Below, piece by piece: positions 36,166 through 55,874 of a stretch of DNA of 64,000 nucleotides (position 1 is the first letter of the stretch; each line of letters opens with the position of its first letter). Below the pieces are notes generated by a model, which saw only the letters and a program-made list of their open reading frames with translations, was not told where the DNA came from and made no database searches. This stretch comes from Deltaproteobacteria bacterium (GTDB lineage Bacteria > Desulfobacterota > Deferrimicrobia > Deferrimicrobiales > Deferrimicrobiaceae): NCBI GenBank assembly GCA_016220005.1, contig JACRIV010000014.1, forward strand, positions 695 to 64,694, given 5' to 3'. The position numbers and the translations under genes were made by a program.

Positions 36166-36202
36166 GGGAAGAGTACGGCTTCCTTTTGCAGGAGAGCGGG
36201 AC

Positions 36203-37357: not shown

Positions 37358-37359
37358 CC

Positions 37360-38471: not shown

Positions 38472-38480
38472 AGGATCTCG

Positions 38481-39677: not shown

Positions 39678-41585
39678 ATGGCTCTTTCCGCCGCAGAGAC
39701 CTTCGGCAATCTCGCGAAGAACAGCCGCCTGCAGAACGCGCTGATCGCCCTGTTCTTCCTGGGCATCTCGGCCCTGTTTTTCAACAAGATCTTCACCAGC
39801 GACTATGGCATTCACCTGTCCATCGGCAAGCACTTCATCGAAACCGGCAAGGTTCCCGACAAGGAATTCATGAACTACCCGCTTCTGAATCAACCAATGA
39901 ACTACGAGGAACTCGGTTTCCAGGCCATTCTCTACACGGTCTATCGCGTGGTGGGATCGGACGGCGTCTCCGTGTTCGTCTGGCTGATGGCCACGCTCTC
40001 CTTTTTCTTCATCTACAAATCGCTGCGGGCAAGGGACATCAACCCCTATATCGCCCTGTTCACCATGCTGATTTTCGCGATGCCGTTCCGGATTCGCCTG
40101 CAGCCCAGGCCGGAGATCATCGCCTACTTCTTCACCTCGTACCTGATCTACGGATGTTCGCTTTTCTACTACAAGGGAAACCGGAAAATCCTCTACACGT
40201 TCCCGCTGGTTTTCCTGTTGTGGGCCAACATCCACCCCTCGACGCTGGCCGGGATCGGGGCTGTGGGCGCATTCGGGACGCAAAGCCTCGTGGTGATCTA
40301 CCGGGACAAATTCGCCAAGGCTTCCCTGAAAAACAACCTGTTCGTCCCGCTGGGGATTTTCGTTCTCTGCGTTCTCGCCACGTTCCTGAGCAAGCACGGG
40401 GTTGAAAGCGTGTTGACCCCCGTGAGGCTAATGGTCAACCCCAACCAAATGACCGGTATCTCGGAGATGACCTCCGTGAAGAATTCCGGCTTTTACGAAT
40501 TCTATAAATACATTCTCGCGGTAAGCGTGGTGTTCGGAGCGCTTGGCCTCATTGCCTGGAAATTGAAGATCCACGACATCATCATGGCCGTGTACGGCTT
40601 GAAGCTGCCCCTTCAGGTGGCCCGCGGCATGGCGTTCATGTCGGTCTTCGCCATTCCGATGGTCGCGCAGTCCTTCGACGGGTTCCTGCGGCGGATCCGG
40701 ACCTACCTGAGCCGGCGCGAGGAGGCTTCGCTCAAGGCCGGGATGAAGGCGGTGAAGGAGAAGGAGCCTTCCCGGAAGAAACAGGGGAAAAAGGTACATC
40801 CGGCCGCAGAGCAGAAACCGACCCCCGCCTCGCCTGCGCCTCTGCCCGCCCTCCGGTATTTCCGGCTGCCGATCGTCCTTGCCTGGCTGGTCTTCCTCGG
40901 GGCGACGGGCTACGGGGCCTACTACATCCGCGTGGGCACGGCGGACATCGTCGAGAACGGGATCGGCCTGACGGAGCACAAGTTCTCGCTGAAGTCCGGC
41001 GAGTTCCTGAGGAATCTTGACATCAAGGGGAACATGTTCAACTTCTTCGACCTGGGGGGGTTCGTGGAGTGGCAGGTCTACCCCCGGAAATTGACCTTCA
41101 TCGACGGTCGGGCAGGCAACCCCACGTTGTTCATGGAGCACCAGGCGATCACGTCGGGCATGGGGGACATGGAAAGCACGTTCCGGAAGTACAACATCAC
41201 CTATGTCATCACAAAGACGGTCGACTCCGCGGGGATGGTGCTGCCCCTGATCAATTACCTCGCGATGAGCCCGAGCTGGGAGCTCGTGTTCGCCGACGGG
41301 CTTGCGGTCGTTTTCGTGAAAAACATACCGGAGAACCGGGCGATTATCGACAGGTACAAGATCTCCAAGAATGTCCTCGGCGCCCAGATCGTCAGCGAGA
41401 TGTTGCATTCCACCTACCTGGGGATCAACAGGTTCTTCGTTTATTACACGATCGGGAACATCTACATGAACAGCGGCGATTATGGAAACGCCCGGAAGTT
41501 CTTCGAATTGGCGCGTTCCATCCACGACGACCCGAATTTGGCGGCCCTCGTCAGCCGGCTGGACGGCATGCAAAGAATGCGCTGA
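39678..41585 (+). CDS. GT-C fold membrane glycosyltransferase (PMT/ArnT-like) with a C-terminal periplasmic TPR-like domain
   Basis: About 11 N-terminal TM helices, a KQGKK linker, further TM helices and a soluble C-terminus with a TPR-like motif (NIYMNSGDYGNARKFFELA). Lower GC than the cytochrome island. Confidence 0.5.
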   Translation: MALSAAETFGNLAKNSRLQNALIALFFLGISALFFNKIFTSDYGIHLSIGKHFIETGKVPDKEFMNYPLLNQPMNYEELGFQAILYTVYRVVGSDGVSVFVWLMATLSFFFIYKSLRARDINPYIALFTMLIFAMPFRIRLQPRPEIIAYFFTSYLIYGCSLFYYKGNRKILYTFPLVFLLWANIHPSTLAGIGAVGAFGTQSLVVIYRDKFAKASLKNNLFVPLGIFVLCVLATFLSKHGVESVLTPVRLMVNPNQMTGISEMTSVKNSGFYEFYKYILAVSVVFGALGLIAWKLKIHDIIMAVYGLKLPLQVARGMAFMSVFAIPMVAQSFDGFLRRIRTYLSRREEASLKAGMKAVKEKEPSRKKQGKKVHPAAEQKPTPASPAPLPALRYFRLPIVLAWLVFLGATGYGAYYIRVGTADIVENGIGLTEHKFSLKSGEFLRNLDIKGNMFNFFDLGGFVEWQVYPRKLTFIDGRAGNPTLFMEHQAITSGMGDMESTFRKYNITYVITKTVDSAGMVLPLINYLAMSPSWELVFADGLAVVFVKNIPENRAIIDRYKISKNVLGAQIVSEMLHSTYLGINRFFVYYTIGNIYMNSGDYGNARKFFELARSIHDDPNLAALVSRLDGMQRMR

Positions 41586-41588
41586 TCG

Positions 41589-42623
41589 ATGAAGGGGACC
41601 GGCACCCTTTTCCTATCCGTCGTCATCGTCAACTGGAACGGCAGGCATCTGCTCAAAGAATGCCTCGATTCGATCCTCGCCCAGGGGGATGAGGATCTCG
41701 AGGTCATCGTCGTCGACAACGGATCCCGGGACGGCTCGCCCGATTTCCTGAAATCCCACTATGCCCGAAAGATCCTGCTGATCGAGCTCGCGACGAACGA
41801 AGGGTGGTCGGGCGGGAACAACAAGGGGATCGAGAGCTCCCACGGCGAATACGTCCTGCTTCTGAACAACGACGTCTGCCTGGGAAGCGATTTTTTCCGG
41901 CGTCTCCGCGAAGGGATCTCGATGCATCCCGGCGCGGGGATGTACGCCACGAAAATCCTCAATTACCACGATCGTTCGGTCATCGACAACACCGGGCACG
42001 TCATCTTCTGGGACGGCACGGCACGCGGCAGAGGACGGCGGAGAAAAGACGGGCCGGAATTCGGGAAGGAAGAGGAAGTGCTCTGCCCGAGCGGCGCCGC
42101 CGGCGTCTACAAGAGGGAAATCTTCGAAAATGTCGGCCCGATCGACGACGATTACTTTACCTACGGGGAGGACACCGAGCTGGGCCTCAGGGCGAGGCAG
42201 GCCGGCTACCGGTGCTATTACCTCCCCTCCGCGGTCCTCTACCACAAATACTCCGCATCCGGCGGGCCGTTCACCCCCCGGAAAATCTATTACGTGGAAA
42301 GGAACCGGGTTTGGACCGTCATCAAGCTCTTCCCATGGTACCTTGTCGCCGTTTCCCCCGTGATGACGATGGCGAGGTACGTCTTCGGGCTGTACGGGCT
42401 GGTTTCCGGGAAGGGGGCCTTGGGGAAGCTGCGGGAGAGCTATTCTTCGAGGGAAGCCATCGGCTCCCTCGTGCGTGCCTATGCGGACGCATTGAGGAAG
42501 GTCCGCGTGATGTGGAGGAAACGACGGTCGCTGCGGGAGACGTCAAAGCTCAGCGACGGGGATTTCGTGCGGATGCTGTACCGTTTTTCAGCGGGCATAA
42601 GGGAAGTGAGCTACAACGATTAG
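41589..42623 (+). CDS. family 2 glycosyltransferase (rhamnosyltransferase-like)
   Basis: SVVIVNWNG...VIVVDNGSRDGS...NNDV motifs and YGEDTELGLR (DXD/ED region). Confidence 0.8.
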   Translation: MKGTGTLFLSVVIVNWNGRHLLKECLDSILAQGDEDLEVIVVDNGSRDGSPDFLKSHYARKILLIELATNEGWSGGNNKGIESSHGEYVLLLNNDVCLGSDFFRRLREGISMHPGAGMYATKILNYHDRSVIDNTGHVIFWDGTARGRGRRRKDGPEFGKEEEVLCPSGAAGVYKREIFENVGPIDDDYFTYGEDTELGLRARQAGYRCYYLPSAVLYHKYSASGGPFTPRKIYYVERNRVWTVIKLFPWYLVAVSPVMTMARYVFGLYGLVSGKGALGKLRESYSSREAIGSLVRAYADALRKVRVMWRKRRSLRETSKLSDGDFVRMLYRFSAGIREVSYND

Positions 42624-42655
42624 GACCCGAGGGATCGGGGACGGGTAACCGCGGA

Positions 42656-43570
42656 ATGCCAGGAAACGGCGGAAGACGCGTCATCGGGCCGGCGAAGGAA
42701 AATATTTGCGCGGTCGTCGTCACCTTCAACCCCGACCCCGGTTTTCCGGAGCGCATGGCAGGGATTGCAGGACAGGTGAGCAGGATCGTGGTCGTGGACA
42801 ATTGCTCGGCCCCGCGGGCCAGGGACATGCTGAATGCCACCTGTGTTCGGCCCGATGTCGACCTGATCCTCAATGACGAAAATCTCGGCGTGGCGGCAGC
42901 CTTGAACCAGGGTGTGCGCCGCGCCGGGGAAAGGTCCCTCCGATGGGTCCTCGCCCTGGACCAGGATTCCACGGCGGAGGGATTCCTCGTGGAGACGCTC
43001 ATCGATGCTTTCAACCACTATCCGGGGAAAGAGAGGATCGCCGTCATCGGGTCGAACTACTTCGATGAAAAGAGGGGGAAGCGATTCATCAAGAACGATC
43101 GTGCCGATCCTCCTTGGATCGAGCAGACGACGGCCATCACATCCGGGAGCCTGCTCTCGATCTCGGCGTTCGAACGCTTCGGTCCTTTCCGTGAGGATTT
43201 CTTCATCGACCACGTCGACGACGAATACTGTCTGAGGGCGCTTTCGAAAGGGTTCAAGGTGATCCTGTGCCGCCGGCCCGTGATCCGGCATCCCATCGGG
43301 GCGGCGATGGCAATACCCCTGTTCGGGAAGCCGGTCTGGACTTCCGGCCATTCCGGGATCCGGCGTTATTACATGATCCGGAATTTCGTCGTTTTGGCCC
43401 GGGAATACCTCTTCACACGGCCGGGATGGATCCTTTCGCGTGCTTACCGGCACGCCGCCTTTGCGGTTTTGGCGCTGCTGTTGGAACCCAGCAGGGGGGA
43501 AAAGCTGCGGATGATGGTGAGGGGGATGCGTGACGGGCTTGCCGGGAGGATGGGCAGGCTCCCCGCCTGA
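42656..43570 (+). CDS. family 2 glycosyltransferase
   Basis: ICAVVVTFNPD...VVVDNCS...ALDQD and DHVDDEYCLRA motifs. ATG at 42656. Confidence 0.75.
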   Translation: MPGNGGRRVIGPAKENICAVVVTFNPDPGFPERMAGIAGQVSRIVVVDNCSAPRARDMLNATCVRPDVDLILNDENLGVAAALNQGVRRAGERSLRWVLALDQDSTAEGFLVETLIDAFNHYPGKERIAVIGSNYFDEKRGKRFIKNDRADPPWIEQTTAITSGSLLSISAFERFGPFREDFFIDHVDDEYCLRALSKGFKVILCRRPVIRHPIGAAMAIPLFGKPVWTSGHSGIRRYYMIRNFVVLAREYLFTRPGWILSRAYRHAAFAVLALLLEPSRGEKLRMMVRGMRDGLAGRMGRLPA

Positions 43571-43581
43571 GACCTACAGGT

Positions 43582-44457
43582 TCAGACGTGGTGGCGCCGC
43601 GCGGTCACCTTGGCCTGAAGCGTCGAGAAGGCAAACCGTGCGAGGTGGCTTCTCCGGAGGAGCTCCATGCCGCCTCGGCGTATGACCTTGAGCAGGGATT
43701 TGCGCACAGCCGACATCCGGACGTAATCCTTGTCGATGTATTCGTTGAAGATCCTCCAGCCGTCGCCGAAAAACGCAGGGTCTTTAATGTACTCCCAGGT
43801 CAACTGGCCCTCGTGCCGCCGGAACTTCGAAAGCGGCTCGGGGAGGAAGACGAAATCCCCCTGTTCCAGGAGATGGAACCACATCTCCAGGTCGATGAGC
43901 TGCTTGTACGTCGTTGTGAAGCCCCGCTCCGCGTGGATTTTCCGGAACAGCACGGAAGTCGGCTCGCCGATGAGGTTTCCCTTCAAAAGACATCTCTTGA
44001 TCACGTTGAATCCGTTGTCTTCGACGAAGCGGTCGGAATAGGAGAGCACCTTCAGGGGGCGAAGGCTGTCGTTCACCAACATCCTTGCCGAGCCCGCGAG
44101 GCTTGCGCGGGGATGGGATTCCATCGCCGACACGAGCTTCTCGAGGCACGCCGGCTCAAGGAGGTCGTCGGCGCAAAGGATCTTGATGTAGTCCCCGGCG
44201 GCGTATTTCAAGCACAGGTTGAAGTTGCCGGTCTGGCCGACGTTCCTTTCGTTCCGGTAGTACCTGATCTTTGCGCCGGAGTCGATGTACTTCCGAACGA
44301 TATCGGGCGTCTTGTCGGTGGAGCAGTTGTCCACGACGACCAGTTCGTAGTCGGGGAAGGTCTGCGCAAGCACCGAACCGACGGCGTCCGGCAGGTAGTG
44401 CGCGTAGTTGTAAGTCGGTATGCAGACGCTGACTTTGGGGGGATTGTGATCGACCAT
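43582..44457 (-). CDS. family 2 glycosyltransferase
   Basis: VSVCIPTYNYAHYL...VVVDNCSTDKT...CADD motifs. Start chosen at the internal ATG (MVDHNPPKVS). Confidence 0.75.
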   Translation of the reverse strand: MVDHNPPKVSVCIPTYNYAHYLPDAVGSVLAQTFPDYELVVVDNCSTDKTPDIVRKYIDSGAKIRYYRNERNVGQTGNFNLCLKYAAGDYIKILCADDLLEPACLEKLVSAMESHPRASLAGSARMLVNDSLRPLKVLSYSDRFVEDNGFNVIKRCLLKGNLIGEPTSVLFRKIHAERGFTTTYKQLIDLEMWFHLLEQGDFVFLPEPLSKFRRHEGQLTWEYIKDPAFFGDGWRIFNEYIDKDYVRMSAVRKSLLKVIRRGGMELLRRSHLARFAFSTLQAKVTARRHHV

Positions 44458-44546
44458 GTCGGGTGTCCCGCGGGTGACTCCTATGCTAACATCTTGAAAT
44501 AAGGTGTGGCAATCGCTTTGAATTTGCTGGGTTTCCGGGGAGGCGG

Positions 44547-45572
44547 ATGCGGCAGGAGACGGATGGCCGATTGGGGGTGAACGGGCAACGCGTCTCCGTC
44601 GCCATGTGCACTTACAACGGTGGCGCTTTTTTGCGTGAGCAACTCGACAGTATTGCTTCGCAGACACGGCTCCCGGACGAGACGGTGGTATTCGACGACA
44701 GGTCTTCGGACGCGGACGCTACCGTGGAGATACTGAAAGATTTTGCCGCCAAGGCTCCTTTCCCCGTCCGGGTCACGGTAAACACGCAGAACATCGGCTC
44801 CACGAAAAATTTCGAGCAGGCGATACGAGCCTGTACCGGCGGCATCATCGTTCTTTCCGACCAGGACGATGTCTGGCTTCCGGACAAGCTGGCGCGTATC
44901 GAAGCGGTTTTCTCTTCCTCTCCAAGGATTGGCGTAGTGTTCACCGATGGGGAGGTCGTGGATGATGCCCTTCGCCCTTTGGGCTACCGACTCTGGCAGG
45001 CCTTCGGGTTCACGCGAAAGATGCAGCGGCGGCTGTCGACGGGGGAGGCCACGGAGGTGCTGCTCAAGTATAACGTGGTCACCGGTGCGACGATGGCGTT
45101 CCGGTCCGAATATGTCCCCCTCGTGGTTCCCTTTCCGGAAAGCTGCGTGCACGACTGGTGGATCGCACTCCTGGTTTCCTTCATCGCCGACCTTGCGATG
45201 ATCCCGGAACCTCTCATCAAATACCGCCAGCACTCCGCGAACCAGATCGGGGGAATAAAGCTCGACTGGTCAGGGAAAGTCGGAAGGGCGCGCGGCGTCG
45301 GAGAGGATGTCCTCCGGGAAGTTGCCGACGGATACCGGGCGGCCTACGACAGGCTTTGCTCTCGTGCGTCATCCCTTAAGAGGGAAGAATTGCTGTCCCG
45401 GCTTGCCGAGAAGGTCCGTCACTTCGAGGCCCGCAGCGGACTGCCGGACACGGTATTCGGGCGGTTGCCGGTGACCATCAAGGAATTGGTTTCGCTTCGG
45501 TACCACAGGTATTCTCTGGGCACGAAGAGCTTTTTCAAGGACTTGTTTCTGCACCCGGCCGGCCCGCGATAG
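44547..45572 (+). CDS. family 2 glycosyltransferase (WbbL-type rhamnosyltransferase-like)
   Basis: VSVAMCTYNGGAFL...VVFDDRSSD...SDQDD motifs. RBS GGGGAGG. Confidence 0.75.
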   Translation: MRQETDGRLGVNGQRVSVAMCTYNGGAFLREQLDSIASQTRLPDETVVFDDRSSDADATVEILKDFAAKAPFPVRVTVNTQNIGSTKNFEQAIRACTGGIIVLSDQDDVWLPDKLARIEAVFSSSPRIGVVFTDGEVVDDALRPLGYRLWQAFGFTRKMQRRLSTGEATEVLLKYNVVTGATMAFRSEYVPLVVPFPESCVHDWWIALLVSFIADLAMIPEPLIKYRQHSANQIGGIKLDWSGKVGRARGVGEDVLREVADGYRAAYDRLCSRASSLKREELLSRLAEKVRHFEARSGLPDTVFGRLPVTIKELVSLRYHRYSLGTKSFFKDLFLHPAGPR

Positions 45573-45725: not shown

Positions 45726-46739
45726 TCAATGCTTTTTAAAAACAGATGTGTATGTTCCTCCCCATCCTTCAAGCCGCTGTAAATTTTTAATCACCAAGTG
45801 AAAAACGGGCATATCGATAATCCTTAACGCCATTCTTGACAAACGGGAAATTTGATTTTTTATTTTATAACTCGCAGCAGTGCGGTGTTTATCCGACGCA
45901 CTATCATGAAAGTCCTCTTCAAGGGATTCCTTCTTTATGAGTGAATACAAATATCTGATTGCATGACTGACGGATAAATCCCACCAATTGTATCTGCTGA
46001 AATTAACGCTTCCTTCGTCCCTTGTTGTTACAAGGGCAGTTTCCAATCCTTGAGATTCGGCGACTTTTGTAAGCACCGCCGGGGGAATAAGTGTTAAATG
46101 GCGGGGAGCGTCCAAATGAGCCCAGAAACGATGAAAAATCTTGAATTGAAGAGATTTTGGATTAGGAGTGGCGATAATAAGTATTCCATCTGGATTCAGT
46201 TTTTCGGATGCGGCCTTAATCACAGCCAAGGGATCGGGTAGGTGCTCTATGACGTGCCAGAGAGCGATCACATCGTATAGGGTTGCCTCGTTTAGTCTTG
46301 AACAGATATCCGTGCTATTTATGACACTTACACCAACCACATCGGACAGAAATTTACAGCAACGTTCATCCATTTCCATCGTATCGACATGAAACCCAGC
46401 CCTTTTCGCGAGAAATGCGAATACTCCGTAGGCCGGCCCGATTTCCAGAAGTTTACCATGGGAGGTGTACGTTAATAGGAGATCAAGCTTATATTTTTCC
46501 TGTTCGGCCTTCTGCGCCAATCCATTTATAGTGGGCAAATCATACGCCGGATAATAATCCGGATAAAAACGACTCATATTTTCCGGGATTGGATGGAGGA
46601 AAATCACTCCGCAACTTTTGCAGATGTAATATTTAAACGATTCATGAGAAAGTCTCAGGTTGAAATCGAACGTATCGAAGTAGTGTGTTCCTTCTTTGTT
46701 GCAAAACGGGCAAGGTCTCCGCATATTAAAAACTCTCAT
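45726..46739 (-). CDS. class I SAM-dependent methyltransferase with an N-terminal zinc ribbon (sugar C-/O-methyltransferase-like)
   Basis: CPFCN...CKSCG zinc ribbon. The SAM motif LLEIGPAYGVFAFLAKRAG and ALWHVIEHLPDP. Sits in AT-rich DNA. Confidence 0.65.
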   Translation of the reverse strand: MRVFNMRRPCPFCNKEGTHYFDTFDFNLRLSHESFKYYICKSCGVIFLHPIPENMSRFYPDYYPAYDLPTINGLAQKAEQEKYKLDLLLTYTSHGKLLEIGPAYGVFAFLAKRAGFHVDTMEMDERCCKFLSDVVGVSVINSTDICSRLNEATLYDVIALWHVIEHLPDPLAVIKAASEKLNPDGILIIATPNPKSLQFKIFHRFWAHLDAPRHLTLIPPAVLTKVAESQGLETALVTTRDEGSVNFSRYNWWDLSVSHAIRYLYSLIKKESLEEDFHDSASDKHRTAASYKIKNQISRLSRMALRIIDMPVFHLVIKNLQRLEGWGGTYTSVFKKH

Positions 46740-46747
46740 TGCTGTTG

Positions 46748-47626
46748 TTATCCTTTTATCGCAGACACGCCCCAAGCCGATGCCGACAAGGCCTGTTTCA
46801 TATTTACATTGCCGTTTGAATATCGTCGCGTCTGATTATCGGCGATCAATAAATTTCCTTGATCTCCCTGCCAGAACGTATTGCTTTTATCCCAATCCTC
46901 TTTTTCGTAGCACGTTCCATCCCTACCGACCACCAGCACTTTTAGATTCCTTCTCAATACCTGTTTCGTCAAACTGTTTTTGCCGCTTTCAAATCTGTGG
47001 ACATCATTTTTTGTGCATATTTTGCTTAGTTTTATGCTCATCATAAGATCTCGCGAGATGACAAATCCATTGGTGCGTATGTGGTAATTCGGGAAGGGGT
47101 CGTATTGTGTTCCATATTTCTTTTCAAGAAATCGCCTGATTATATTCGCATGTAAATTTCTGATGGCAATAGGGACGTGAATTACCCTGCCTGCAATGGG
47201 TATGTTTTCTCGAATGGCAGGCATGCCTAACACATTTGTGTAGTGACTTTCCCACGATCCGGTTGCTCCGGCAACACCGACGAAACTTTGTTGTATGACC
47301 TTATACAACTTTAAGAGCCAATCTTTATCTAATATTATGCTGAATGAGTTTAAAAAGCAAAAATATCGATAGTTATATTTATTCGCAACCTTAAAATATG
47401 GAACCAGATCAAATCCAATGTCTGAGACAACATATTTTTTATGAGGGATATTCCTTAATAATTTGGAATAATCAGAAATACTTTTTTTTGAGTGGAATCC
47501 TTTGAATATGAATAAGAGGTCGTGTTCGACTCCCCCTTTGTATTTTAAGTAAGAATCTATAAACCTCTCGAAGGGAGTTAATCCGTTTTTAGCGCGGACC
47601 AAATGGGAAACGCAGATTTCCGCCAT
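46748..47626 (-). CDS. hypothetical protein (no recognisable family), in the AT-rich glycan island
   Basis: 292-aa ORF in roughly 25-30% GC DNA. Intact ATG. Its context between the methyltransferase and Wzx suggests a glycan-modifying enzyme. Confidence 0.4.
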   Translation of the reverse strand: MAEICVSHLVRAKNGLTPFERFIDSYLKYKGGVEHDLLFIFKGFHSKKSISDYSKLLRNIPHKKYVVSDIGFDLVPYFKVANKYNYRYFCFLNSFSIILDKDWLLKLYKVIQQSFVGVAGATGSWESHYTNVLGMPAIRENIPIAGRVIHVPIAIRNLHANIIRRFLEKKYGTQYDPFPNYHIRTNGFVISRDLMMSIKLSKICTKNDVHRFESGKNSLTKQVLRRNLKVLVVGRDGTCYEKEDWDKSNTFWQGDQGNLLIADNQTRRYSNGNVNMKQALSASAWGVSAIKG

Positions 47627-47657
47627 TCTATAGCAATCCTGAAGACTATATTTACAA

Positions 47658-49175
47658 TTATATTACAGTTAGATATCTGCTAAATTCCTGCTTCAGCCAT
47701 TCGCGTGTATGCGAAAACAGGAGAAAAGAGAATAACAGGGAAAGAGTAAATGTCGAAAACACCCAGAGAGTTGAGGAGGATAGGGAAGCATTGCTTGGGA
47801 AAAGCAATCTGGAGAACAGGACAATCACGAATACGGCGATGAGGGGAGAGCCCACATCGGAAAGATACCATTGCCACATCTGGTCCTTGAAGATCCGTGA
47901 GTGCATGAAAGGGATCTCGATCAGAAAATATCCTGCGTTGAGGAGAATCCATATAATCGCTGCGCCGACCGAGCCGTACGTCGTGACCAAGACGATAAGG
48001 AGCGGCACCAATATGATCACGGCGATCAAGTTCTTGTAAAAAGACAATTTTGTCCAGCCGTATGACAGTTGAAGCGTATAGGGGAGGATCATAATAGAGT
48101 TCAACAAGGTTCCGGTAAGAAGAAGGCTCATCAGCAGATGTGTGTTCCGGACCGTCCCTGGATCGTTGATCCACAATAAAAGGATTTCGCGGGAGTAGAA
48201 TATTGCGGTGATAGCCACCGGAAAGACAACAACCGAGAGAAACTGGCATCCCCTGTGATAAAGCGCGGAAAGTTCCAGTTCCTTCCCCTCCGCCACTAGT
48301 TGCGAGAACTTGGGGAACAATGCCGCGAAAACAGGGTGAACCAGGAGATTCAATGCGTTTGCGACGTTGAAGGCCAGGATGTAATACCCGAACATCTCGA
48401 GACTCAGGAGCTTGCTGAGGACGATTTTGTCCAGCTGGGTGAGGATCGTCGCGACAACCGAAATCCCCGTCATGCCGGCGGCAAATTTCCAATGTTTTTC
48501 CAGAAGGGATTTATTGAAAGAGCTTTTCACACCTGTTTCGGGGAGAGAGGACCATAAGCATGCGCCGAGGAGACATGTCTGAGAAACGCTTACGAGAATT
48601 TGCCACTTGAAGTAGGCTTCGATGGTCGGGGAAATGAGCCACAGGACCAACACCGCCCCGACGGCTTGGACGGTCGCCATTCCGGTCCGGACGACATTAA
48701 ACAGCACTTGACGTTGCAATCCCATAAGGCCGCCCGTGTAAAAAGCGGCCGGCCACTCGAATGCAACCACGATCCCCATGACCTCCAGGGCCTTCTCCAC
48801 GGTGCCTACGCTTATGCCTTTGGTATTCAACCATTTTTGCGCGATTTTGGGTGCGCAGGCGAGGATGCCGATTGCAATGAGGATGCCGATTCCCCAATAG
48901 ATGATCTCCATGGTTCGGACGAGTTCCCGCGATTCCTGTTCATTGCCCGGAACCGCGGAGAGGCGCGCCAACTCCCTGCTGACAGTTGAGCTCAGTCCCA
49001 GGTCCAGGATGGAAAGCAGGCCGATCAGGGAGATATAAACTCCAATAAGCCCATACGATTCAATACCGAGAAACTTGATGTAAAGGGGGACGAAGACAAT
49101 GCTGATGATTGCGGTCCATCCCTTGCCCGCGAAGTTGGCGATGATGTTCCGCCGGATGCTGGGAGGGGAGGTCAT
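47658..49175 (-). CDS. wzx: Wzx-type oligosaccharide flippase (MOP superfamily)
   Basis: 505 aa with about 14 TM helices and the typical polysaccharide-biosynthesis-protein topology. Its start overlaps the stop of the reductase gene (ATGA). Confidence 0.7.
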   Translation of the reverse strand: MTSPPSIRRNIIANFAGKGWTAIISIVFVPLYIKFLGIESYGLIGVYISLIGLLSILDLGLSSTVSRELARLSAVPGNEQESRELVRTMEIIYWGIGILIAIGILACAPKIAQKWLNTKGISVGTVEKALEVMGIVVAFEWPAAFYTGGLMGLQRQVLFNVVRTGMATVQAVGAVLVLWLISPTIEAYFKWQILVSVSQTCLLGACLWSSLPETGVKSSFNKSLLEKHWKFAAGMTGISVVATILTQLDKIVLSKLLSLEMFGYYILAFNVANALNLLVHPVFAALFPKFSQLVAEGKELELSALYHRGCQFLSVVVFPVAITAIFYSREILLLWINDPGTVRNTHLLMSLLLTGTLLNSIMILPYTLQLSYGWTKLSFYKNLIAVIILVPLLIVLVTTYGSVGAAIIWILLNAGYFLIEIPFMHSRIFKDQMWQWYLSDVGSPLIAVFVIVLFSRLLFPSNASLSSSTLWVFSTFTLSLLFSFLLFSHTREWLKQEFSRYLTVI

Positions 49176-50023
49176 GCCTTGAGGTATCTCGCAAGGGCGT
49201 CCCGCCAGTGCGGCAGCCTGATTCCCAAAAAGGCGGCCTTCCCGTTGGCAAGTACTGAATAGAGCGGGCGACGCATGGTTCCCGATAATCCCTTCCTGTC
49301 AACAGGCGTCACTTTCACGTCAAGTCCCAGAACCTCGTAAATTGCTTTCGTGAACTCGTACCAGGTGCATTCGCCCTCGTTGACGAGGTGGAAGAGGCCG
49401 GGCGCGGCTCTGCGGTGTTCGATCAGCGCCAGGACGGCCTTCGAAAGATCGTCGGTCGATGTCGGGCAGACGACCTGGTCGCAGCTCATTTCGAGTTCGC
49501 GCATCTTGGCGGCGTCGGCGATCCGATTGTCGACGAAGTTCCCGCCCTTGGAAACCGCGCCGGAACGGCCGTAGAGCCCGCAAGTCCGGATGACGATGGC
49601 GGAGTCCGGGGCGGTTGATAGGGCGGCATGTTCGCCGGCCAGCCTGGAAATGCCGTACATCTGCAAGGGGGCCGGCCGGTCGTCTTCCAGGTAAGGCGTG
49701 CGCTTGTCGCCTCCGAAGACGTAGTCGGAGCTGAAGGTGACGAGGCGGCAACCGGCGTCGCGGCAGATCGCTGCGAGGTCGCGGACGGCGACGCAGTTGA
49801 CCCGGAACGCCGTAAGGGGCTCGACTTCGCACTGGGGGACATTGTGGAATGCCGCCGTGTTGATGACGACGTCCGGCCGGTGATCGCCGATGACGGACTC
49901 GATAGCCCCCCGGGAGGTCACGTCGAGCACTTCTCGCCCCGGAGCGAAGATATCGTGTCCCCCGGCGTTCCGGAGGATGTCGCCGCCCAGCTGGCCCGTC
50001 TTGCCGATGAGGAGAATTTTCAT
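49172..50023 (-). CDS. NDP-4-dehydro-6-deoxyhexose 4-reductase, RmlD (dTDP-4-dehydrorhamnose reductase) family
   Basis: 283 aa. [13 protein letters not shown] Rossmann motif and the YxxxK catalytic motif MYGISRLAGE. The ORF-track start at 50425 is an extension. Confidence 0.8.
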   Translation of the reverse strand: MKILLIGKTGQLGGDILRNAGGHDIFAPGREVLDVTSRGAIESVIGDHRPDVVINTAAFHNVPQCEVEPLTAFRVNCVAVRDLAAICRDAGCRLVTFSSDYVFGGDKRTPYLEDDRPAPLQMYGISRLAGEHAALSTAPDSAIVIRTCGLYGRSGAVSKGGNFVDNRIADAAKMRELEMSCDQVVCPTSTDDLSKAVLALIEHRRAAPGLFHLVNEGECTWYEFTKAIYEVLGLDVKVTPVDRKGLSGTMRRPLYSVLANGKAAFLGIRLPHWRDALARYLKA

Positions 50024-50562
50024 CCGGAAGACTGCTTCCCGAAAAGAGGGTAGGACCGATCTTTCCGGGAGATGACGGGGTTGTCCAGCGGCCACCGGAT
50101 CCCGAACGCAGGGTCGTCCCAACGGACGCCGCTTGCATGCTCGGGGGAGTAGAACTCGAACATCTGGTAGAAGACTTCGGTGTCGTCGGAAAGCGTCTGA
50201 AAGCCGTGCGCGAACCCCTCGGGGATGTAGAACATCTTTAGATTGCTTTCCGTCAGTTCCAGTGCTGTCCACCTGCAATATGTGGGGGAGTTGGAGCGAA
50301 GGTCCACGATGACGTCGTAAATTGACCCGCGGGCGCACCGCACCAGCTTGGCTTCGGCTTTCGGCGGCAGTTGGAAGTGCATCCCGCGCAAGGTGCCTTT
50401 CTTCCTGTTGAAGGAAACGTTGCACTGCGCCACGTCGAACTTGAGGCCGTATTGTGCGAACTCCTTCCGGCAGAAGCTGCGGGCAAAATACCCCCGCTCA
50501 TCCTCCATCGGCTGGAGATCGATGACATACGCGCCTTTCAGCGCCGTTTCCGTGAAGATCAC
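50020..50562 (-). CDS. NDP-4-dehydro-6-deoxyhexose 3,5-epimerase, RmlC cupin family
   Basis: 180 aa. [13 protein letters not shown]...RGMHFQ...EGFAHGF motifs. GTG start forming a GTGA overlap with the upstream stop. Confidence 0.75.
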
Positions 50563-51794
50563 TCGACGACCCGGACTTCCGGAATGGGGAGGATGAATTT
50601 TCCGCCCCTTTCGCGGTAAGCCTTCTGTTGCTCCAAGATCTCCTCCGCGAAGTTCCACGCCAGGATCAGCACGTAGTCGGGCATGTCCGCAAGGAGCCTG
50701 TCGGGGGGATGGACGGGCAGGTGCATGCCGGGTGTGAAGAGGTTCTGCTTGTAAGGGCTCTTGTCGACCGTGTATGCGACGAGGTCCGTCGAAATGCCGC
50801 AGTAGTTGAGAAGGGTGTTCCCCTTCGCCGGGGCGCCGTACGCCGCGACGCGCATCCCGGAGGACTTGAGCTCCTTGAGCAGTCGAATGAGATCGGACTT
50901 GATCTTTGCGGTCCTCCGGGCGAATTCGACGTAGGTCTCTTTCGCGTGGAGCCCCTTCCTTGCCTCCTCTTCCAAGTGCCGCGGGACCGTGCCGGCGACC
51001 GGTCGGGATTTCTGGTGGGAAATGTAATAAATGATCGACCCGCCGTGGATCGGTACGTGCTCCAGATCGAAGAGCTCCATCCCGTACAGGTTAAAGAGAT
51101 AGGACATCGCCCGGACGGAGAGGTAAGAATAATGTTCGTGATAGACCGTGTCGAATTCGGTTTTCTCCACAAAGTCCACCAGGTATGGGGCTTCGATGGC
51201 GAGGACCCCGCTGGGCGCGAGGAGGTGTTTCAGCCCCTTTACGAAATCGTGGATTTCGGGGACGTGCGCGAAGACATGGCGCGCGAGGATGACATCGGCG
51301 GGGCCGAATCGCTCCTTGATGGTCCGGGAGGTTTTTTCGTTGAAGAAGTCGACGAAAGTGTCGATGCCGGACTCGATGGCGACCCGGGCGATGTTTGCGG
51401 CGGGTTCCACACCCAGGACTTTCACTCCGGTCTTCTTGAAATAATGCAGGACGGTCCCGTCGTTGCTGGCGATCTCGACGACGCGGGAATTTTCGTTCAG
51501 GCCGAATCGTTCCTTGAAAGAGGCCGCGAGATAGTCGGAATGCCTGTGGACCAGATCCGACGTGGCGGAAAAATAGATGTAATCGGAGAAGAGCGCTTCC
51601 GGTGGCACGACGTACCCGATCTGGACGAGCCCGCACTCCTCGCAGAGGTACAGGTCCAGCGGGTATTTCGGCTCATTCCCTTTTTTCAGGGATTCCTCGG
51701 TGAGGAAGCTGTTCGCCAGCGCCATCGTGCCGAAGTCAATGATCTTGCAGATGGATTCTTTGCCGCAGAATCTGCAGCGCACGGGCGGTCTCAT
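50559..51794 (-). CDS. TylCIII/NovU-type sugar C-methyltransferase (zinc-ribbon + class I methyltransferase + C-methyltransferase C-terminal domain)
   Basis: CRFCGKES...CEECG zinc ribbon. SAM motif [12 protein letters not shown]. Length (411 aa) and the C-terminal domain are characteristic of deoxysugar C-methyltransferases. Confidence 0.65.
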
Positions 51795-51800
51795 TCTTGA

Positions 51801-52919
51801 TCAGGAAATTTGGCCCAACGGGCTGTTCTCGTATTGCCCGATCTGGCGGAGGCAGACTTCCCGAAGGTCCCCTTTCTCCTTGTAGGCCCTCGTCCAGGCG
51901 ACCACCCGGTCGATGGCGTCCTCGAGGTTCCAACGGGGGGACCAGCCCAGCCGGGTTCTTGCCTTGGAGCAATCCAGCTTGAGGAAGTGCGTCTCGTGGG
52001 GATGCTCTCCCTTGTCGACCTCGTAGGAAGCGCCGGGACCCCAAGCCTTGCAGAACCGGCGGACGATCCATTCCACCGGCTGGGCGCCGTGGTCTTCCGG
52101 GCCGAAATTCCATCCCTCGGCGTAGGCCGGCCCGTCCTCGACCAGTCTCTGCGCCAGGGTGAGGTACCCGCTCAACGGCTCCAGCACGTGCTGCCACGGT
52201 CGGACGGCGCGGGGGTTGCGGACCCGGATCTTTTCCTGCTTCAGGATGGCCCGGACGCAGTCCGGGACCAGCCGGTCCTGCGCCCAGTCGCCGCCGCCGA
52301 TGACGTTGCCGGCCCTTGCCGAAGCGACCCCGACGCCGTGGGTTTTGTAGTCACGGGGGTTGAAAAAGGAGCTCCGGTAGGCGGAGGTGACCAGCTCCGA
52401 GCACGCCTTGCTGCTGGAGTAGGGGTCGTACCCGCCGAGCGGCTCGTTTTCCCGGTATCCCATGACCGATTCCCGGTTCTCGTAGCATTTGTCCGTCGTG
52501 ACGTTGACGACGGCCCTCACGCTTGCGCACTTGCGGACGGCTTCGAACAGGTTGACGGTGCCCATGACGTTCGTGGAATACGTTTCCACCGGGTCCCGGT
52601 ACGACTCCCTTACGAGGGGCTGGGCCGCCATGTGAATGACGACGTCCGGCCGGCTGTCCGCCATCGACCTCGATAGCTTGTCGCCGTCCCGGATGTCGGA
52701 AACGACTGACTTCACGAGCGTGTCGACGCCGCACAGCTCGTAGAGGCTCGGTTGTGTCGGCGGTTCCAGCGCATACCCCGTGACTTCCGCTCCCAGGCGG
52801 TGCAACCAGAGGGAGAGCCACGCCCCCTTGAACCCGGTGTGCCCGGTCAGGAAGACCCTCCTGTTCTTCCAGAATCCTTTCAATCCCACACTTTCCACGG
52901 CGCTTTTCCGGCGCGCCAC
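51801..52919 (-). CDS. rfbG: CDP-glucose 4,6-dehydratase
   Basis: FWKNRRVFLTGHTGFKGAWLSLWL, YDPYSSSKAC (YxxxK) and the overall RfbG/DdhB architecture. Probable GTG start. Confidence 0.8.
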   Translation of the reverse strand: MARRKSAVESVGLKGFWKNRRVFLTGHTGFKGAWLSLWLHRLGAEVTGYALEPPTQPSLYELCGVDTLVKSVVSDIRDGDKLSRSMADSRPDVVIHMAAQPLVRESYRDPVETYSTNVMGTVNLFEAVRKCASVRAVVNVTTDKCYENRESVMGYRENEPLGGYDPYSSSKACSELVTSAYRSSFFNPRDYKTHGVGVASARAGNVIGGGDWAQDRLVPDCVRAILKQEKIRVRNPRAVRPWQHVLEPLSGYLTLAQRLVEDGPAYAEGWNFGPEDHGAQPVEWIVRRFCKAWGPGASYEVDKGEHPHETHFLKLDCSKARTRLGWSPRWNLEDAIDRVVAWTRAYKEKGDLREVCLRQIGQYENSPLGQIS

Positions 52920-53656
52920 GACGCCTCGAGCTGGTTCTTGTCCCGCATCGTGTCCATCGGCTGCCAGAAGCCGCGGTGCCTGTAGGCGACGAGCTCCCCG
53001 TTCTTCGCCAGGTGCTCAAGCGGCTCATTCTCGAAGACGGTATTGTCGCCTTCGAGGTAGTCGAAGATTCCGGGCTCGAGGACGAAGAAGCCGGCGTTGA
53101 TCCATCCCCCGTCGCCCTTCGGCTTCTCCCGGAACCCCAGGACCCGGTCGTTCTCCCCCAGGTCCAGCGCTCCGAACCGGCCGCCCGGCTGTGCGGCGCT
53201 GATCGTTGCCAGCCTGCCGTGGGACCGGTGATAGGACACAAGGTCCTTGATGTTGATGTCCGACACGCCGTCTCCGTAGGTGAGCATGAACGGCCGGTTG
53301 TCCGTGTATTGCCGGATCCTCTTGACCCTGCCGCCCGTCATGGTGTCGTTACCGGTGTTCACCAGGGTAACTTTCCATGGCTCGGCGGTGTGGGTATGGA
53401 TCTCCCGCTCGGTCGGCTTCCGGAAGTCGAAGGTGACGTCGGACTCGTGCAGGAAGTAGTGCGCGAAATATTCCTTGATGACGTATCCCTTATACCCGAG
53501 GCAGATGATGAAATCGTCGAACCCGTAATGCGAGTACAGCTTCATGATGTGCCAGAGGATCGGCTTCTCCACGATCTCGATCATCGGCTTCGGCTTGAGA
53601 TGCGATTCCTCGCTGATCCTGGTGCCGAACCCTCCGGCCAGAATGACCACCTTCAT
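52880..53656 (-). CDS. rfbF: glucose-1-phosphate cytidylyltransferase
   Basis: MKVVILAGGFGTRISEESHLKPKPM and the RfbF/DdhA-type C-terminus ...RGFWQPMDTMRDKNQLEASW. Confidence 0.85.
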   Translation of the reverse strand: MKVVILAGGFGTRISEESHLKPKPMIEIVEKPILWHIMKLYSHYGFDDFIICLGYKGYVIKEYFAHYFLHESDVTFDFRKPTEREIHTHTAEPWKVTLVNTGNDTMTGGRVKRIRQYTDNRPFMLTYGDGVSDINIKDLVSYHRSHGRLATISAAQPGGRFGALDLGENDRVLGFREKPKGDGGWINAGFFVLEPGIFDYLEGDNTVFENEPLEHLAKNGELVAYRHRGFWQPMDTMRDKNQLEASWRAGKAPWKVWD

Positions 53657-54000
53657 TTCGGATCGCCCTCCTTCACCTCTTCCTTCAGCAGCGCCAGCTC
53701 CTGGGCCATCCTCTTGTTCATCTGGTGGAGCTTCGAGATCGCGATCGAAAAGTGGATCAGGATGAGCATGATGAAGAGGATGCCGACGAGGAACAAAAGG
53801 GAGGGGGGGTAGGCGATCCCGACGATGCGCGACAGGCGGATCAGCCAATCCTGCTTCACCGACAGGACGAGGATCACCATGCTCCCGCAGAGCCACAGGA
53901 TCGAGTACTCCTCCCGGAGGCGGCGCCGCCGGACCATCTCGAGAATGTAGACGAGGAGGGCGGCGGACATGCACACCGAGAGAAGGGTCACCCTGCTCAA
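53653..54000 (-). CDS. DUF2304 family small membrane protein (partner of a polyprenol-phosphate glycosyltransferase)
   Basis: 115 aa, 3-4 TM helices. ATGA/TTGA overlaps with both neighbours. Typically found paired with a DPM1-like GT2. Confidence 0.5.
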   Translation of the reverse strand: MSRVTLLSVCMSAALLVYILEMVRRRRLREEYSILWLCGSMVILVLSVKQDWLIRLSRIVGIAYPPSLLFLVGILFIMLILIHFSIAISKLHQMNKRMAQELALLKEEVKEGDPK

Positions 54001-54704
54001 CCGAATCTCCTAATGGCGTTAATGAGGAAAGAGAGCGTCACCTTAACCATATAATATATCGCCCCGAACGTCGTTATGGAGGATTTTCCCTCGACGCGGG
54101 CGTACATCCGGACCGGGACCTCCGCCGTTCCGGCCCCGAGGCGGTGCATCAGGATGTAGGCGTCCACCTCCGGGTAGTCGGAAGGGTAGTGGCGCGAATA
54201 GAACTCGATCAGCCGGCGGTTGATGGCGAAGAAGCCGGACGTGGGGTCGGTCACGCGGTAACCGGTGAAGAGGTTCACCAGGGACCGGAAGAACCGGATG
54301 CCGAAGATGCGGGGGATCGACCCGCGGTATCCCGCCTCCCCAAGGAACCTGGAGCCGATCGCCGCATCGGCCTTGCCCGCCAAGATGGGCTCGAGCACCC
54401 GGGGGATGTCCTCGATCTCGTGCTGCCCGTCGCCGTCGATCCGTACGAGCGCCTCGTAGCCCCGGTCGCGGGCGAACAGGAACGCCGTCTGTGCGGCGCC
54501 GCCGATGCCCAGGTTGCAGGGAAGGTCCAGTACGGTGGCCCCGGCCGACCTTGCCGCGGCAGAGGTCGCGTCCGTAGACCCGTCGTTGACCACGAGGACG
54601 TCGTAGGGGAATCTCCGCCTGAGGGCGGAGACGATCTGCCCGATCGTCTGCTCCTCCTGGAACGCGGGGATGGCGATCAGGACGCGATGCGGGGGTCTGT
54701 CCAT
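53997..54704 (-). CDS. polyprenol-phosphate sugar synthase, GT2 (DPM1/GtrB/ArnC-like)
   Basis: VLIAIPAFQEE...VLVVNDGSTD...DGDGQH motifs, 235 aa. Start at the internal ATG (ORF track 54893). Confidence 0.75.
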   Translation of the reverse strand: MDRPPHRVLIAIPAFQEEQTIGQIVSALRRRFPYDVLVVNDGSTDATSAAARSAGATVLDLPCNLGIGGAAQTAFLFARDRGYEALVRIDGDGQHEIEDIPRVLEPILAGKADAAIGSRFLGEAGYRGSIPRIFGIRFFRSLVNLFTGYRVTDPTSGFFAINRRLIEFYSRHYPSDYPEVDAYILMHRLGAGTAEVPVRMYARVEGKSSITTFGAIYYMVKVTLSFLINAIRRFG

Positions 54705-54738: not shown

Positions 54739-55317
54739 CTACTGCACGACCTTTTCGATCTCCTTCTTGAGCTGGGGAGGCGCCACGGTGCCGACCGCAG
54801 AGAACGCGACAACCCCTTTCTTGTCGATGAGGAAGAGAGCGGGAGTCCCCGCGACCCCGTAAGGGTCTGCGACCATGAAGGAGTCTCCCACAAGCTCGTC
54901 GAACACGATCCGGAACGCGATTTTCTCGTTCACGACGAACTTGTCGATCGCCTTTTTCAACTCCTTGCCGTCGAGGTTCACGCCGACGACGTGGAGCCCC
55001 TTCCCGTAATATTGCTTCGTCATATCGTTGATCAGCGGGATCTCCTCCCGGCACGGGCCGCAGAAGAACGACCAGAAGAAAAGCAGGACCGCCTCCTTGC
55101 CGCCGCGGTCCTTGAGGCGGAACTCCTTGTCGGCGAGATCCCTGACCGCGAAGTCGGGCGCCGTGCTGCCGACCTTCAGGGTCTCTATCCCCTTGACCGT
55201 CGGGATCTTGGTGTAGGAACTTCCCTTGCTCTCCTGCGCCGCCGACCACCCGCTGGAAACAGCGACGGTTACGGCAACGGTGATCGCGACGATAGAAACG
55301 GCCATCCCGCTTTTCAT
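54739..55317 (-). CDS. TlpA-like periplasmic thioredoxin (CGPC)
   Basis: Signal peptide. AVLLFFWSFFCGPCREEIPLI. The 474-aa ORF-track entry is a frame extension over the next gene. Confidence 0.75.
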   Translation of the reverse strand: MKSGMAVSIVAITVAVTVAVSSGWSAAQESKGSSYTKIPTVKGIETLKVGSTAPDFAVRDLADKEFRLKDRGGKEAVLLFFWSFFCGPCREEIPLINDMTKQYYGKGLHVVGVNLDGKELKKAIDKFVVNEKIAFRIVFDELVGDSFMVADPYGVAGTPALFLIDKKGVVAFSAVGTVAPPQLKKEIEKVVQ

Positions 55318-55328
55318 GGCGCCCTCGC

Positions 55329-55874
55329 TCACTTCCTGATTTCCTTCACGGCCTGTGTGACGACGTCGCGCAGGTGCTTCTCGTCGCCCTGCTTGTAGCC
55401 CACGTGGTAGAACCGGATCTTCCCGTTGACGTCGATGAGGAGCGTCGTCGGCAGGACCATCGCGTTGAAGGAGGTGGCGACCTGCCGGTTCTTGTCGATG
55501 ATCACCGGGAAATTGATCTTGGTCTCCATCCCCTGCATGAACTTCACGACGCGATGGGTGCCGAACGAGTCGAGGTTGACGCCGACGACGACGAGCCCCT
55601 TGTCCTTGAACTCGTTGAAGATATCGATCAGCTTCGGCATTTCCTCGATGCAGGATGCGCAGTAGATCGACCAGAAGTCGAGGATGACGACCTTTTTCCC
55701 CTTCAGCTTGGAGTACTCGATCGGCTGGTTTTCGATCGTGTGGCCGTTGAACATCGGCGCCGCGTCGCCTTCCTTGATCCCCCCGCCCCCTCCAAAAAAC
55801 GCCCCCGCCGGCCGTGCGATCGCCAGGATCGCCAGCGCGGCAAACACGAAACGGATCGGGGATCTGCGATTCAT
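55329..55874 (-). CDS. TlpA-like periplasmic thioredoxin (CASC)
   Basis: Signal peptide. VVILDFWSIYCASCIEEMPKL. Confidence 0.75.
   Translation of the reverse strand: MNRRSPIRFVFAALAILAIARPAGAFFGGGGGIKEGDAAPMFNGHTIENQPIEYSKLKGKKVVILDFWSIYCASCIEEMPKLIDIFNEFKDKGLVVVGVNLDSFGTHRVVKFMQGMETKINFPVIIDKNRQVATSFNAMVLPTTLLIDVNGKIRFYHVGYKQGDEKHLRDVVTQAVKEIRK

Follow-up and report, generated by a model that had tools for sequence, protein, structure and literature searches.

Most of what is known of branched, C-methylated deoxysugars comes from antibiotics of actinomycetes, where these sugars are made through deoxythymidine diphosphate (dTDP) intermediates. Among cytidine diphosphate (CDP)-linked sugars, seven were listed as characterized in 2020, namely, 6-deoxygulose, ascarylose, abequose, paratose, cereose, cillose, and tyvelose (PMC7725333), and a C-methyl CDP-sugar of the L series is not one of them. 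Here we describe a five-gene cassette (49172-53656, minus strand) in a 64-kb stretch of DNA from a Deltaproteobacteria bacterium (Desulfobacterota, Deferrimicrobiaceae; assembly GCA_016220005.1, a metagenome-assembled genome with locus-tag prefix HZA60; contig JACRIV010000014.1, positions 695 to 64,694), which we refer to as the window. We estimate a probability of roughly 0.7 that a full pathway to a CDP-3-C-methyl-6-deoxy-L-hexose is encoded here. The cassette, which is common in environmental and uncultured bacteria, is a recombination of known modules and not a new kind of system, and it predicts an eighth type of CDP-sugar pathway, L-series and C-methylated.

Comparison with described pathways

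In Bacillus cereus, CDP-cereose and CDP-cillose are reportedly the products of a four-gene operon. That work (Li et al. 2017, J Biol Chem 292:7636) is cited in PMC10050317 and PMC7725333. On the B. cereus plasmid pRML01, rfbF, rfbG, and the C-methyltransferase gene are collinear with their counterparts in the window (61, 42, and 41% identity, respectively) and are followed by a broken gene for a short-chain dehydrogenase/reductase (SDR). The two systems have in common a CDP front end, a C-methyltransferase, and then an SDR reductase, as well as the product class, a CDP-3-C-methyl-6-deoxyhexose. The B. cereus operon, however, has no RmlC-like epimerase and yields D-series sugars (gulo/allo), whereas the window carries an inserted RmlC-like gene and an RmlD-type reductase and, beyond these, an extra methyltransferase (MT2) and a partner protein with a predicted glycosyltransferase A (GT-A) fold (orf292). 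The epimerase and the type of reductase make the window operon a variant of the cereose type and not a member of it. The existence of the B. cereus operon also tempers the view, taken in an earlier reading of the window from its letters and open reading frames (ORFs; here, the sequence-only reading), that C-methylated sugars of the CDP route are barely characterized. Our literature searches on vinelose, on 3-C-methyl-rhamnose biosynthesis, and on CDP-dependent C-methyltransferases in O-antigen loci returned nothing beyond the B. cereus work, proposals for Coxiella virenose by GDP or dTDP routes, and a Sinorhizobium meliloti gene list. We considered S. meliloti pSymB as a further instance of the cassette and rejected it, as it has only rfbF, rfbG, and the C-methyltransferase gene, with no epimerase or reductase. 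On the Brachyspira hyodysenteriae plasmid pZH1179 (3530-7215), rfbF, a radical S-adenosylmethionine (SAM) gene, an RmlC-family gene, and a C-methyltransferase gene lie in a row, with the radical SAM gene at the place of the dehydratase.

The late steps of dTDP-L-mycarose synthesis (TylC3/EryBIII, TylK/EryBVII, and TylC2/EryBIV), together with EvaC and EvaD, share with the window the logic of C3 methylation, C5 epimerization, and C4 reduction. Mycarose-type pathways proceed through dTDP-linked, 2-deoxygenated sugars that are used to glycosylate antibiotics in actinomycetes, whereas the sugar predicted for the window is CDP-linked and keeps its 2-hydroxyl group, and its genes have Wzx and glycosyltransferase family 2 (GT2) genes beside them in a surface-glycan locus. 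In the CDP-L-ascarylose pathway of Yersinia pseudotuberculosis (AscA-F), AscA and AscB correspond to RfbF and RfbG, and the L-sugar is then formed from a CDP-4-ketosugar by a 5-epimerase and a 4-reductase. Ascarylose, however, needs a C3 deoxygenation by the E1/E3 enzymes AscC and AscD, a place that is taken in the window by the C-methyltransferase; Pfam and NCBIfam scans of the ten operon genes found no E1/E3 (DdhC/DdhD) C3-deoxygenation domains.

CDP-vinelose (CDP-6-deoxy-3-C-methyl-2-O-methyl-L-talose) is a nucleotide sugar of Azotobacter vinelandii that was described in the 1960s and is the classical CDP-linked example of its kind, and to our knowledge no genes have been tied to vinelose so far. 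It belongs to the product class predicted for the window, being CDP-linked, 3-C-methylated, 6-deoxy, and of the L series, and its O-methyl group is consistent with MT2. CDP-vinelose has the L-talo configuration and a 2-O-methyl group; the predicted window product may be manno or talo, and its putative O-methyl group may or may not be at C2. The cassette may connect genes to CDP-vinelose-type sugars. The sequence-only reading had forecast a CDP-linked C-methyl-6-deoxy-L-hexose resembling vinelose or evalose; the sugar class is supported and the vinelose type fits L-talo, but evalose has the D-manno configuration, so the prediction is either its L-series counterpart or the vinelose-type L-talo form.

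CDP front end and C-methyltransferase

The five gene identities in the cassette, as the sequence-only reading had named them, were borne out by Pfam and NCBIfam matches. The first gene, rfbF/ddhA (52880-53656), encodes a glucose-1-phosphate cytidylyltransferase of 258 amino acids that scored 429.1 bits against TIGR02623 (cutoff, 300.25), with residues 1-257 covering model positions 1-255, that is, full length; GAAGGAGGG lies upstream of its ATG. The second, rfbG/ddhB (51801-52889; longest ORF to 52919), encodes a CDP-glucose 4,6-dehydratase that scored 508.3 bits against TIGR02622 (cutoff, 278.45) and has the extended-SDR motifs GHTGFKG at residue 14 and YSSSK at residue 155, numbered on the short form. 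Judged by sequence family, both assignments are secure. RfbF would convert glucose-1-phosphate and CTP to CDP-D-glucose, from which RfbG would form CDP-4-keto-6-deoxy-D-glucose.

The third gene (50559-51794; 411 amino acids) encodes a C-methyltransferase of the TylCIII/TcaB9/MtmC family with the complete domain set, PF08421 (E value, 2.7e-21; residues 7-69), PF13489 (1.4e-15; 84-241), and the C-terminal PF08484 (4e-62; 248-405). The protein aligned over its full length with three solved 3-C-methyltransferases, MtmC (4rv9; E value, 5e-110; 41% identity), KijD1 (5t64; 38%), and TcaB9 (3ndi; 37%), and with that and the PF08484 domain the C-methyltransferase type proposed earlier was confirmed. 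Its Cys7, Cys10, Cys51, and Cys54 aligned with the zinc-binding cysteines of TcaB9, and its Tyr72, His177, Tyr218, Glu220, and His221 with TcaB9 Tyr76, His181, Tyr222, Glu224, and His225, which we take to be active-site residues that have been probed by mutagenesis. All solved members of the 3-C-methyltransferase family that we know of use dTDP-sugars. We assign the protein as a SAM-dependent nucleoside diphosphate-4-keto-6-deoxyhexose 3-C-methyltransferase, an assignment that is secure as to family and predicted as to substrate. By analogy to TylC3, TcaB9, and the B. cereus enzyme, it would add the methyl group at C3, beside the 4-keto group, with inversion at that carbon.

A phylogeny of this methyltransferase had been proposed as a check, and we hoped that it would separate users of CDP-sugars from users of dTDP-sugars. 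In a neighbor-joining tree, the window enzyme fell in a tight clade with those of nine related loci (L001-L008 and L012 in the numbering that we use for loci compared with the window), and MtmC, KijD1, and TcaB9 lay outside. Every member of this clade is accompanied by rfbF and a true rfbG (65-69% identity), so the tree agrees with a CDP context. Nucleotide specificity is nevertheless not readable from it, as the identity of the window enzyme to MtmC (41%) is similar to its identity to enzymes in CDP contexts of other phyla (44-50%).

RmlC-like epimerase and RmlD-like reductase

The fourth gene (50020-50562; GTG start) encodes an RmlC-family epimerase of 180 amino acids (PF00908; E value, 2.7e-67) that scored 184 bits against TIGR01221, above the cutoff of 155.75. 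Its best matches in the PDB were RmlC enzymes (E value, 1e-47), and its detectable relatives there include EvaD (1oi6), NovW, and mono-epimerases, among them 3-epimerases (4hn0 and 8dak). In alignment with solved RmlC, the catalytic motifs are kept, with His62 (GMHFQ), Lys72 (AKLVR), and Tyr132 (VFYQM), and a WDDP motif is also present. We propose that this enzyme would epimerize C5 of the C3-methylated 4-ketosugar, because C5 is the only exchangeable position once C3 is quaternary. TylK, EryBVII, and EvaD epimerize C5 after C-methylation, and AscE acts on a CDP-sugar; the proposed step is modeled on these enzymes.

The RmlC-like enzyme might instead act first, as a 3,5- or 3-epimerase on CDP-4-keto-6-deoxyglucose, with methylation following, and the product would then be another stereoisomer that is neither L-manno nor L-talo and is possibly of the D series. 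The retention of the full RmlC catalytic set and the presence of mono-epimerases in the family fit this order of events, and in four related loci (L087, L089, L090, and L091) the gene for the epimerase comes ahead of that for the methyltransferase. The order of genes is poor evidence for the order of reactions, however, and in the mycarose and epivancosamine routes (TylC3/TylK and EvaC/EvaD) methylation comes before 5-epimerization. We regard an epimerase-first pathway as unlikely and favor epimerization of the methylated ketosugar.

The fifth gene (49172-50023) encodes an RmlD-family NAD(P)H-dependent 4-ketoreductase of 283 amino acids, with PF04321 spanning residues 1-282 (E value, 4.8e-73) and a score of 247.6 bits against TIGR01214 (cutoff, 224.05). 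It would reduce C4 of the epimerized ketosugar to give CDP-6-deoxy-3-C-methyl-L-mannose (3-C-methyl-L-rhamnose) or its L-talo epimer. A precedent for such a product is the 3-C-methylrhamnose reported from a bacterial O-antigen (PMC7203242). The catalytic motif of this protein is YxxxR and not YxxxK. In Salmonella enterica RmlD the catalytic triad is Thr104-Tyr128-Lys132, and the window protein has Tyr123 and Arg127 aligned with Tyr128 and Lys132, with Ser99 also present; the Lys was found in all five solved RmlDs that we aligned. Arginine occupies the same position in 9 of 11 cassette relatives, which are 62-71% identical overall, and the two others (L002 and L008) have Lys.

An Arg in place of the SDR catalytic Lys could indicate that the reductase is disabled and that the cassette is decaying or nonfunctional, with its 3' genes being foreign; the GC contents of wzx, orf292, and MT2 (51, 39, and 42%, against 58-65% for their neighbors) would suit such a history. 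We consider this highly improbable, because all ten ORFs of the operon are intact with full-length domain matches, the gene overlaps are preserved, and the persistence of Arg in most relatives at so modest an overall identity points to purifying selection. If the cassette is functional, as we favor, the RmlD-like reductase is a natural test of Arg replacing the catalytic Lys of an SDR. Together with the orf292 family described below, this reductase is where the analysis adds most.

Conservation of the cassette and its link to CDP

We recovered 513 relatives of the C-methyltransferase by scanning a single genome for each species and examined the neighbors of the best 80 loci. An rfbF-type cytidylyltransferase (at least 39% identity) flanked the C-methyltransferase in 64 of these 80 loci and an RmlA-like gene in only 2; the remaining 14 had neither, several of them being short contigs. 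The records name many lineages, among them Acidobacteria, Gemmatimonadota, Verrucomicrobia, Planctomycetota, Chloroflexota, Heliobacteriaceae, and archaea.

The full order rfbF-rfbG-C-methyltransferase-rmlC-rmlD is kept, at 60-74% protein identity, in L002-L008, L012, L085, L086, and L092, the last three of which were found by a route other than the C-methyltransferase scan; within the methyltransferase clade the identity is 60-72%. L004 lies on a closed Nitrospirota chromosome (OY760142.1). In L002 the order is the same with an insertion and frameshifts, and L001 matches it until its contig ends inside rmlC. The same-order loci, 12 beyond the window, come from Nitrospirota, Geobacteraceae, Syntrophorhabdales, metagenome-assembled genomes labeled "delta proteobacterium," and metagenome contigs with no classification. 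Wherever the contig of a close relative is long enough, the rmlC-like and rmlD-like genes hold their place behind rfbF, rfbG, and the methyltransferase gene. Radical SAM genes were seen inside the cassette in L002 and L086.

These neighborhoods bear on whether the locus holds one pathway or two. The rfbF, rfbG, and C-methyltransferase genes might by themselves lead to a D-series, cereose-type CDP-3-C-methyl sugar, reduced by the methyltransferase or by another SDR, while the RmlC-like and RmlD-like enzymes belonged to dTDP-L-rhamnose synthesis and were fed by rmlA and rmlB elsewhere. The closest solved relative of the methyltransferase, MtmC, has been described as also having ketoreductase activity (PMC3539893), and 3-C-methylrhamnose occurs alongside rhamnose in a bacterial O-antigen (PMC7203242). 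The two late enzymes exceed the NCBIfam equivalog cutoffs for dTDP-rhamnose synthesis, and among solved proteins those closest to them are bona fide RmlC and RmlD. We nonetheless consider a split into two pathways quite improbable. No rmlA or rmlB paralogues were found in the whole window or in the flanks of close relatives, and in all of the latter the RmlC-like gene has rfbF, rfbG, and the C-methyltransferase gene as its neighbors. In at least 11 loci, rmlC and rmlD lie directly behind the methyltransferase gene and are coupled by overlaps, and orf292 homologues always follow a trio of C-methyltransferase, RmlC-like, and SDR genes, even where the SDR is not of the RmlD type. The window reductase also departs from RmlD at the catalytic Lys.

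Several observations count against a single pathway that is CDP-linked throughout. The match of the RmlC-like and RmlD-like enzymes to dTDP-rhamnose families is one. The earlier proposal had named, as its own counter-case, late enzymes confined to dTDP-sugars with rmlA and rmlB elsewhere; the window itself holds no such genes, but the sequences of the two enzymes, by themselves, are compatible with strict dTDP specificity as well as with the predicted acceptance of CDP-sugars. A second is Arg127 of the reductase, at a position where every solved RmlD in our alignment has the catalytic Lys. A third is L090 (1-2644 and 5344-11386), which has RmlC-like, C-methyltransferase, SDR, orf292, MT2, and Wzx genes with no rfbF or rfbG. 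Its back end adjoins a divergent rmlB/A/C/D-like set, and the locus may represent the same pathway supplied with dTDP-sugars. Because this locus pairs the late enzymes and orf292 with an rmlBACD-like set, these proteins are possibly not CDP specific, and strict CDP specificity of the late enzymes, which we had considered, is weakened. Finally, the order of methylation and epimerization and the C4 stereochemistry of the product are also matters that we infer. The single CDP-linked route to an L-series sugar remains the interpretation to which the probability given above applies. If it is correct, the cassette enzymes may accept CDP-sugars that keep the 2-hydroxyl group and would be of use in glycodiversification.

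orf292, a candidate dedicated glycosyltransferase

Downstream of the cassette and the flippase gene wzx lies orf292 (46748-47626, minus strand), which belongs to an unannotated family. It had no match in Pfam, in NCBIfam, or by sequence in the PDB. Its homologues number at least 921 and are about 280 amino acids long, and a precomputed Pfam domain was given for only 1 of the 120 that were listed; a weak match to PF13712 appeared in 11 of 43 family members. An AlphaFold2 model with a predicted local distance difference test (pLDDT) score of 92.9 has a predicted GT-A (nucleotide-diphospho-sugar transferase) fold. A DXD motif would be expected after the fourth strand of such a fold; in the predicted model, the strand at residues 88-92 is followed by an invariant L92-N93-S94-x-S96 (FLNSFS). 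The other invariant acidic residues are D69, D73, E213, and D263.

We sampled eight orf292 homologues by their similarity to orf292 alone (46-52% identity) and inspected their neighborhoods. All eight lay no more than three genes downstream of a C-methyltransferase, RmlC-like, and SDR set, and six came directly after the reductase gene. The sampled loci usually also carry rfbF and rfbG, Wzx, and an MT2-like gene. The linkage extends to loci whose methyltransferase shares only 37-46% identity with that of the window and whose reductase is not of the RmlD type. Homologues of orf292 are present in L002 and in L085-L092, whereas none was found in the flanks of L003-L008 and L012. The linkage thus runs one way, with orf292 accompanying the cassette and not the reverse, as would be expected if orf292 were a transferase with the cassette product as its donor.

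On the strength of the modeled fold and this linkage, we propose that orf292 is a dedicated glycosyltransferase that would transfer the cassette sugar. If this is true, it would provide a function for a large family of "hypothetical" GT-A-fold proteins. A broader claim can be put forward tentatively, at somewhat less than even odds: that orf292 founds a family of GT-A glycosyltransferases which have no canonical DXD motif, use a 3-C-methyl-6-deoxy-L-hexose nucleotide as donor, and are inherited with the cassette, and that orf292, the Arg-containing reductase, and MT2 form part of a seven-gene "vinelose-type" module. Such a module would be widespread among lineages that include uncultured Nitrospirota, Desulfobacterota, and Acidobacteriota, and it would explain genetically the CDP-vinelose-like sugars, which since the 1960s have been known as metabolites only.

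MT2 and the Wzx flippase

The sequence-only reading had pointed to a second zinc-ribbon methyltransferase that could add an O-methyl group to the same sugar. The gene for this protein, MT2 (45726-46739, minus strand), is real and encodes a class I SAM methyltransferase of 337 amino acids with an N-terminal CxxC...CxxC zinc ribbon and a PF13489 domain (E value, 9e-19). PF08484 is absent from MT2, which matches the N-terminal two-thirds of the C-methyltransferase at 24% identity. MT2 homologues (37-49% identity) follow the cassette in ten loci (L002, L004-L007, L085, L087, L089, L090, and L092), and because MT2 recurs beside the cassette in this way, further methylation, probably O-methylation, of the sugar is likely; the suggestion of a shared substrate gains support from the same co-conservation. 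We propose that MT2 is an O-methyltransferase for the cassette sugar, which would give a vinelose-type product.

Between the reductase gene and orf292 lies a gene for a Wzx-type flippase of the MOP family (47658-49175, minus strand; 505 amino acids; PF01943/PF13440), with ten hydrophobic segments. A Wzx gene has the same place in L007, L085, L089, L090, and L091. Together with the neighboring GT2 genes, Wzx would build and export the glycan, and the product of the operon is most likely destined for a cell-surface glycan. The GC content of the window is mostly high, at about 58-68%, and drops at 46-48 kb. The GC contents of wzx, orf292, and MT2 given above suggest that the 3' part of the operon (45726-49175) was acquired from a lower-GC donor.

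Operon layout and gene junctions

The ORF list of the window has ten intact ORFs, all on the minus strand, from 54704 down to 45726. Because they share a strand and are joined by overlaps or short gaps, they probably form one operon, so the functional unit exceeds the five genes that had been singled out earlier. An independent gene call on a public assembly of the same sequence gave identical boundaries, with proteins of 411, 180, 283, and 505 amino acids and 4-nucleotide (nt) overlaps. Promoter and terminator scans of 45-56.5 kb returned nothing convincing.

Where start and stop codons overlap in bacterial operons, they do so most often by 4 nt. The 4-nt overlaps described earlier for the window are present, namely, GTGA at 50559-50562 (C-methyltransferase stop and RmlC-like start), ATGA at 50020-50023 (rmlC-like and rmlD-like), and ATGA at 49172-49175 (RmlD-like stop and wzx start). 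An ATGA at 53653-53656 joins rfbF to the DUF2304 gene, and the stop of the GT2 gene upstream overlaps the TTG start of the DUF2304 gene (TTGA). These short overlaps support cotranslation of the operon genes; the coupling is real yet unremarkable, because such overlaps are routine in bacterial operons.

The statement that every junction overlaps went too far, since the rfbG stop and the C-methyltransferase start are 6 nt apart, TGATCAAGAATG (TGA-TCAAGA-ATG). The 40-nt overlap given for rfbF and rfbG (52880-52919) rests on the longest ORF, which starts at GTG 52919. By alignment, the overlap is most likely 10 nt, with rfbG starting at GTG 52889, because the rfbG ATG of L087 and L089 is position-homologous with that codon (CCGTGGAAATTATGGGAATAA versus CCGTGGAAAGTGTGGGATTGA). 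In other relatives, rfbG starts 3-9 residues ahead of a conserved FW motif.

Neighboring genes

The coupled run begins with a GT2 gene of the polyprenyl-phosphate sugar synthase type (PpgS/AglJ/ArnC-like; 53997-54704, minus strand; ATG at 54704; PF00535, E value, 4e-22). Its best NCBIfam match was NF058614 PpgS at 92 bits, far under the cutoff of 370. It is followed by a gene for a small DUF2304 membrane protein (53653-54000, minus strand; PF10066, E value, 5.6e-26) with two hydrophobic segments. A DUF2304 protein is the usual partner of PpgS-type GT2 enzymes. Such a pair is found close to the cassette in L085 as well, and L086 has a YfhO-like GT-C protein there; together with the pair in the window (53653-54704), these genes hint at a polyprenyl-phosphate-sugar (three-component) glycosylation branch.

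Just beyond MT2, Pfam and NCBIfam matches identify four further GT2 genes (41589-45572). This GT2 run is headed by a gene for a 635-amino-acid protein (orf635; 39678-41585, plus strand) that has several hydrophobic segments, weak matches to C-terminal tetratricopeptide repeats, and no family match; as a guess, it may be a polymerase or a transferase of the GT-C type. Two multiheme c-type cytochrome genes flank two AhpC/TSA-redoxin genes (36062-39674, plus strand, and 54739-55874, minus strand) immediately upstream of the glycan locus, and a further ORF with thioredoxin/TlpA-like sequence ends 35 nt ahead of the start of the GT2 gene.

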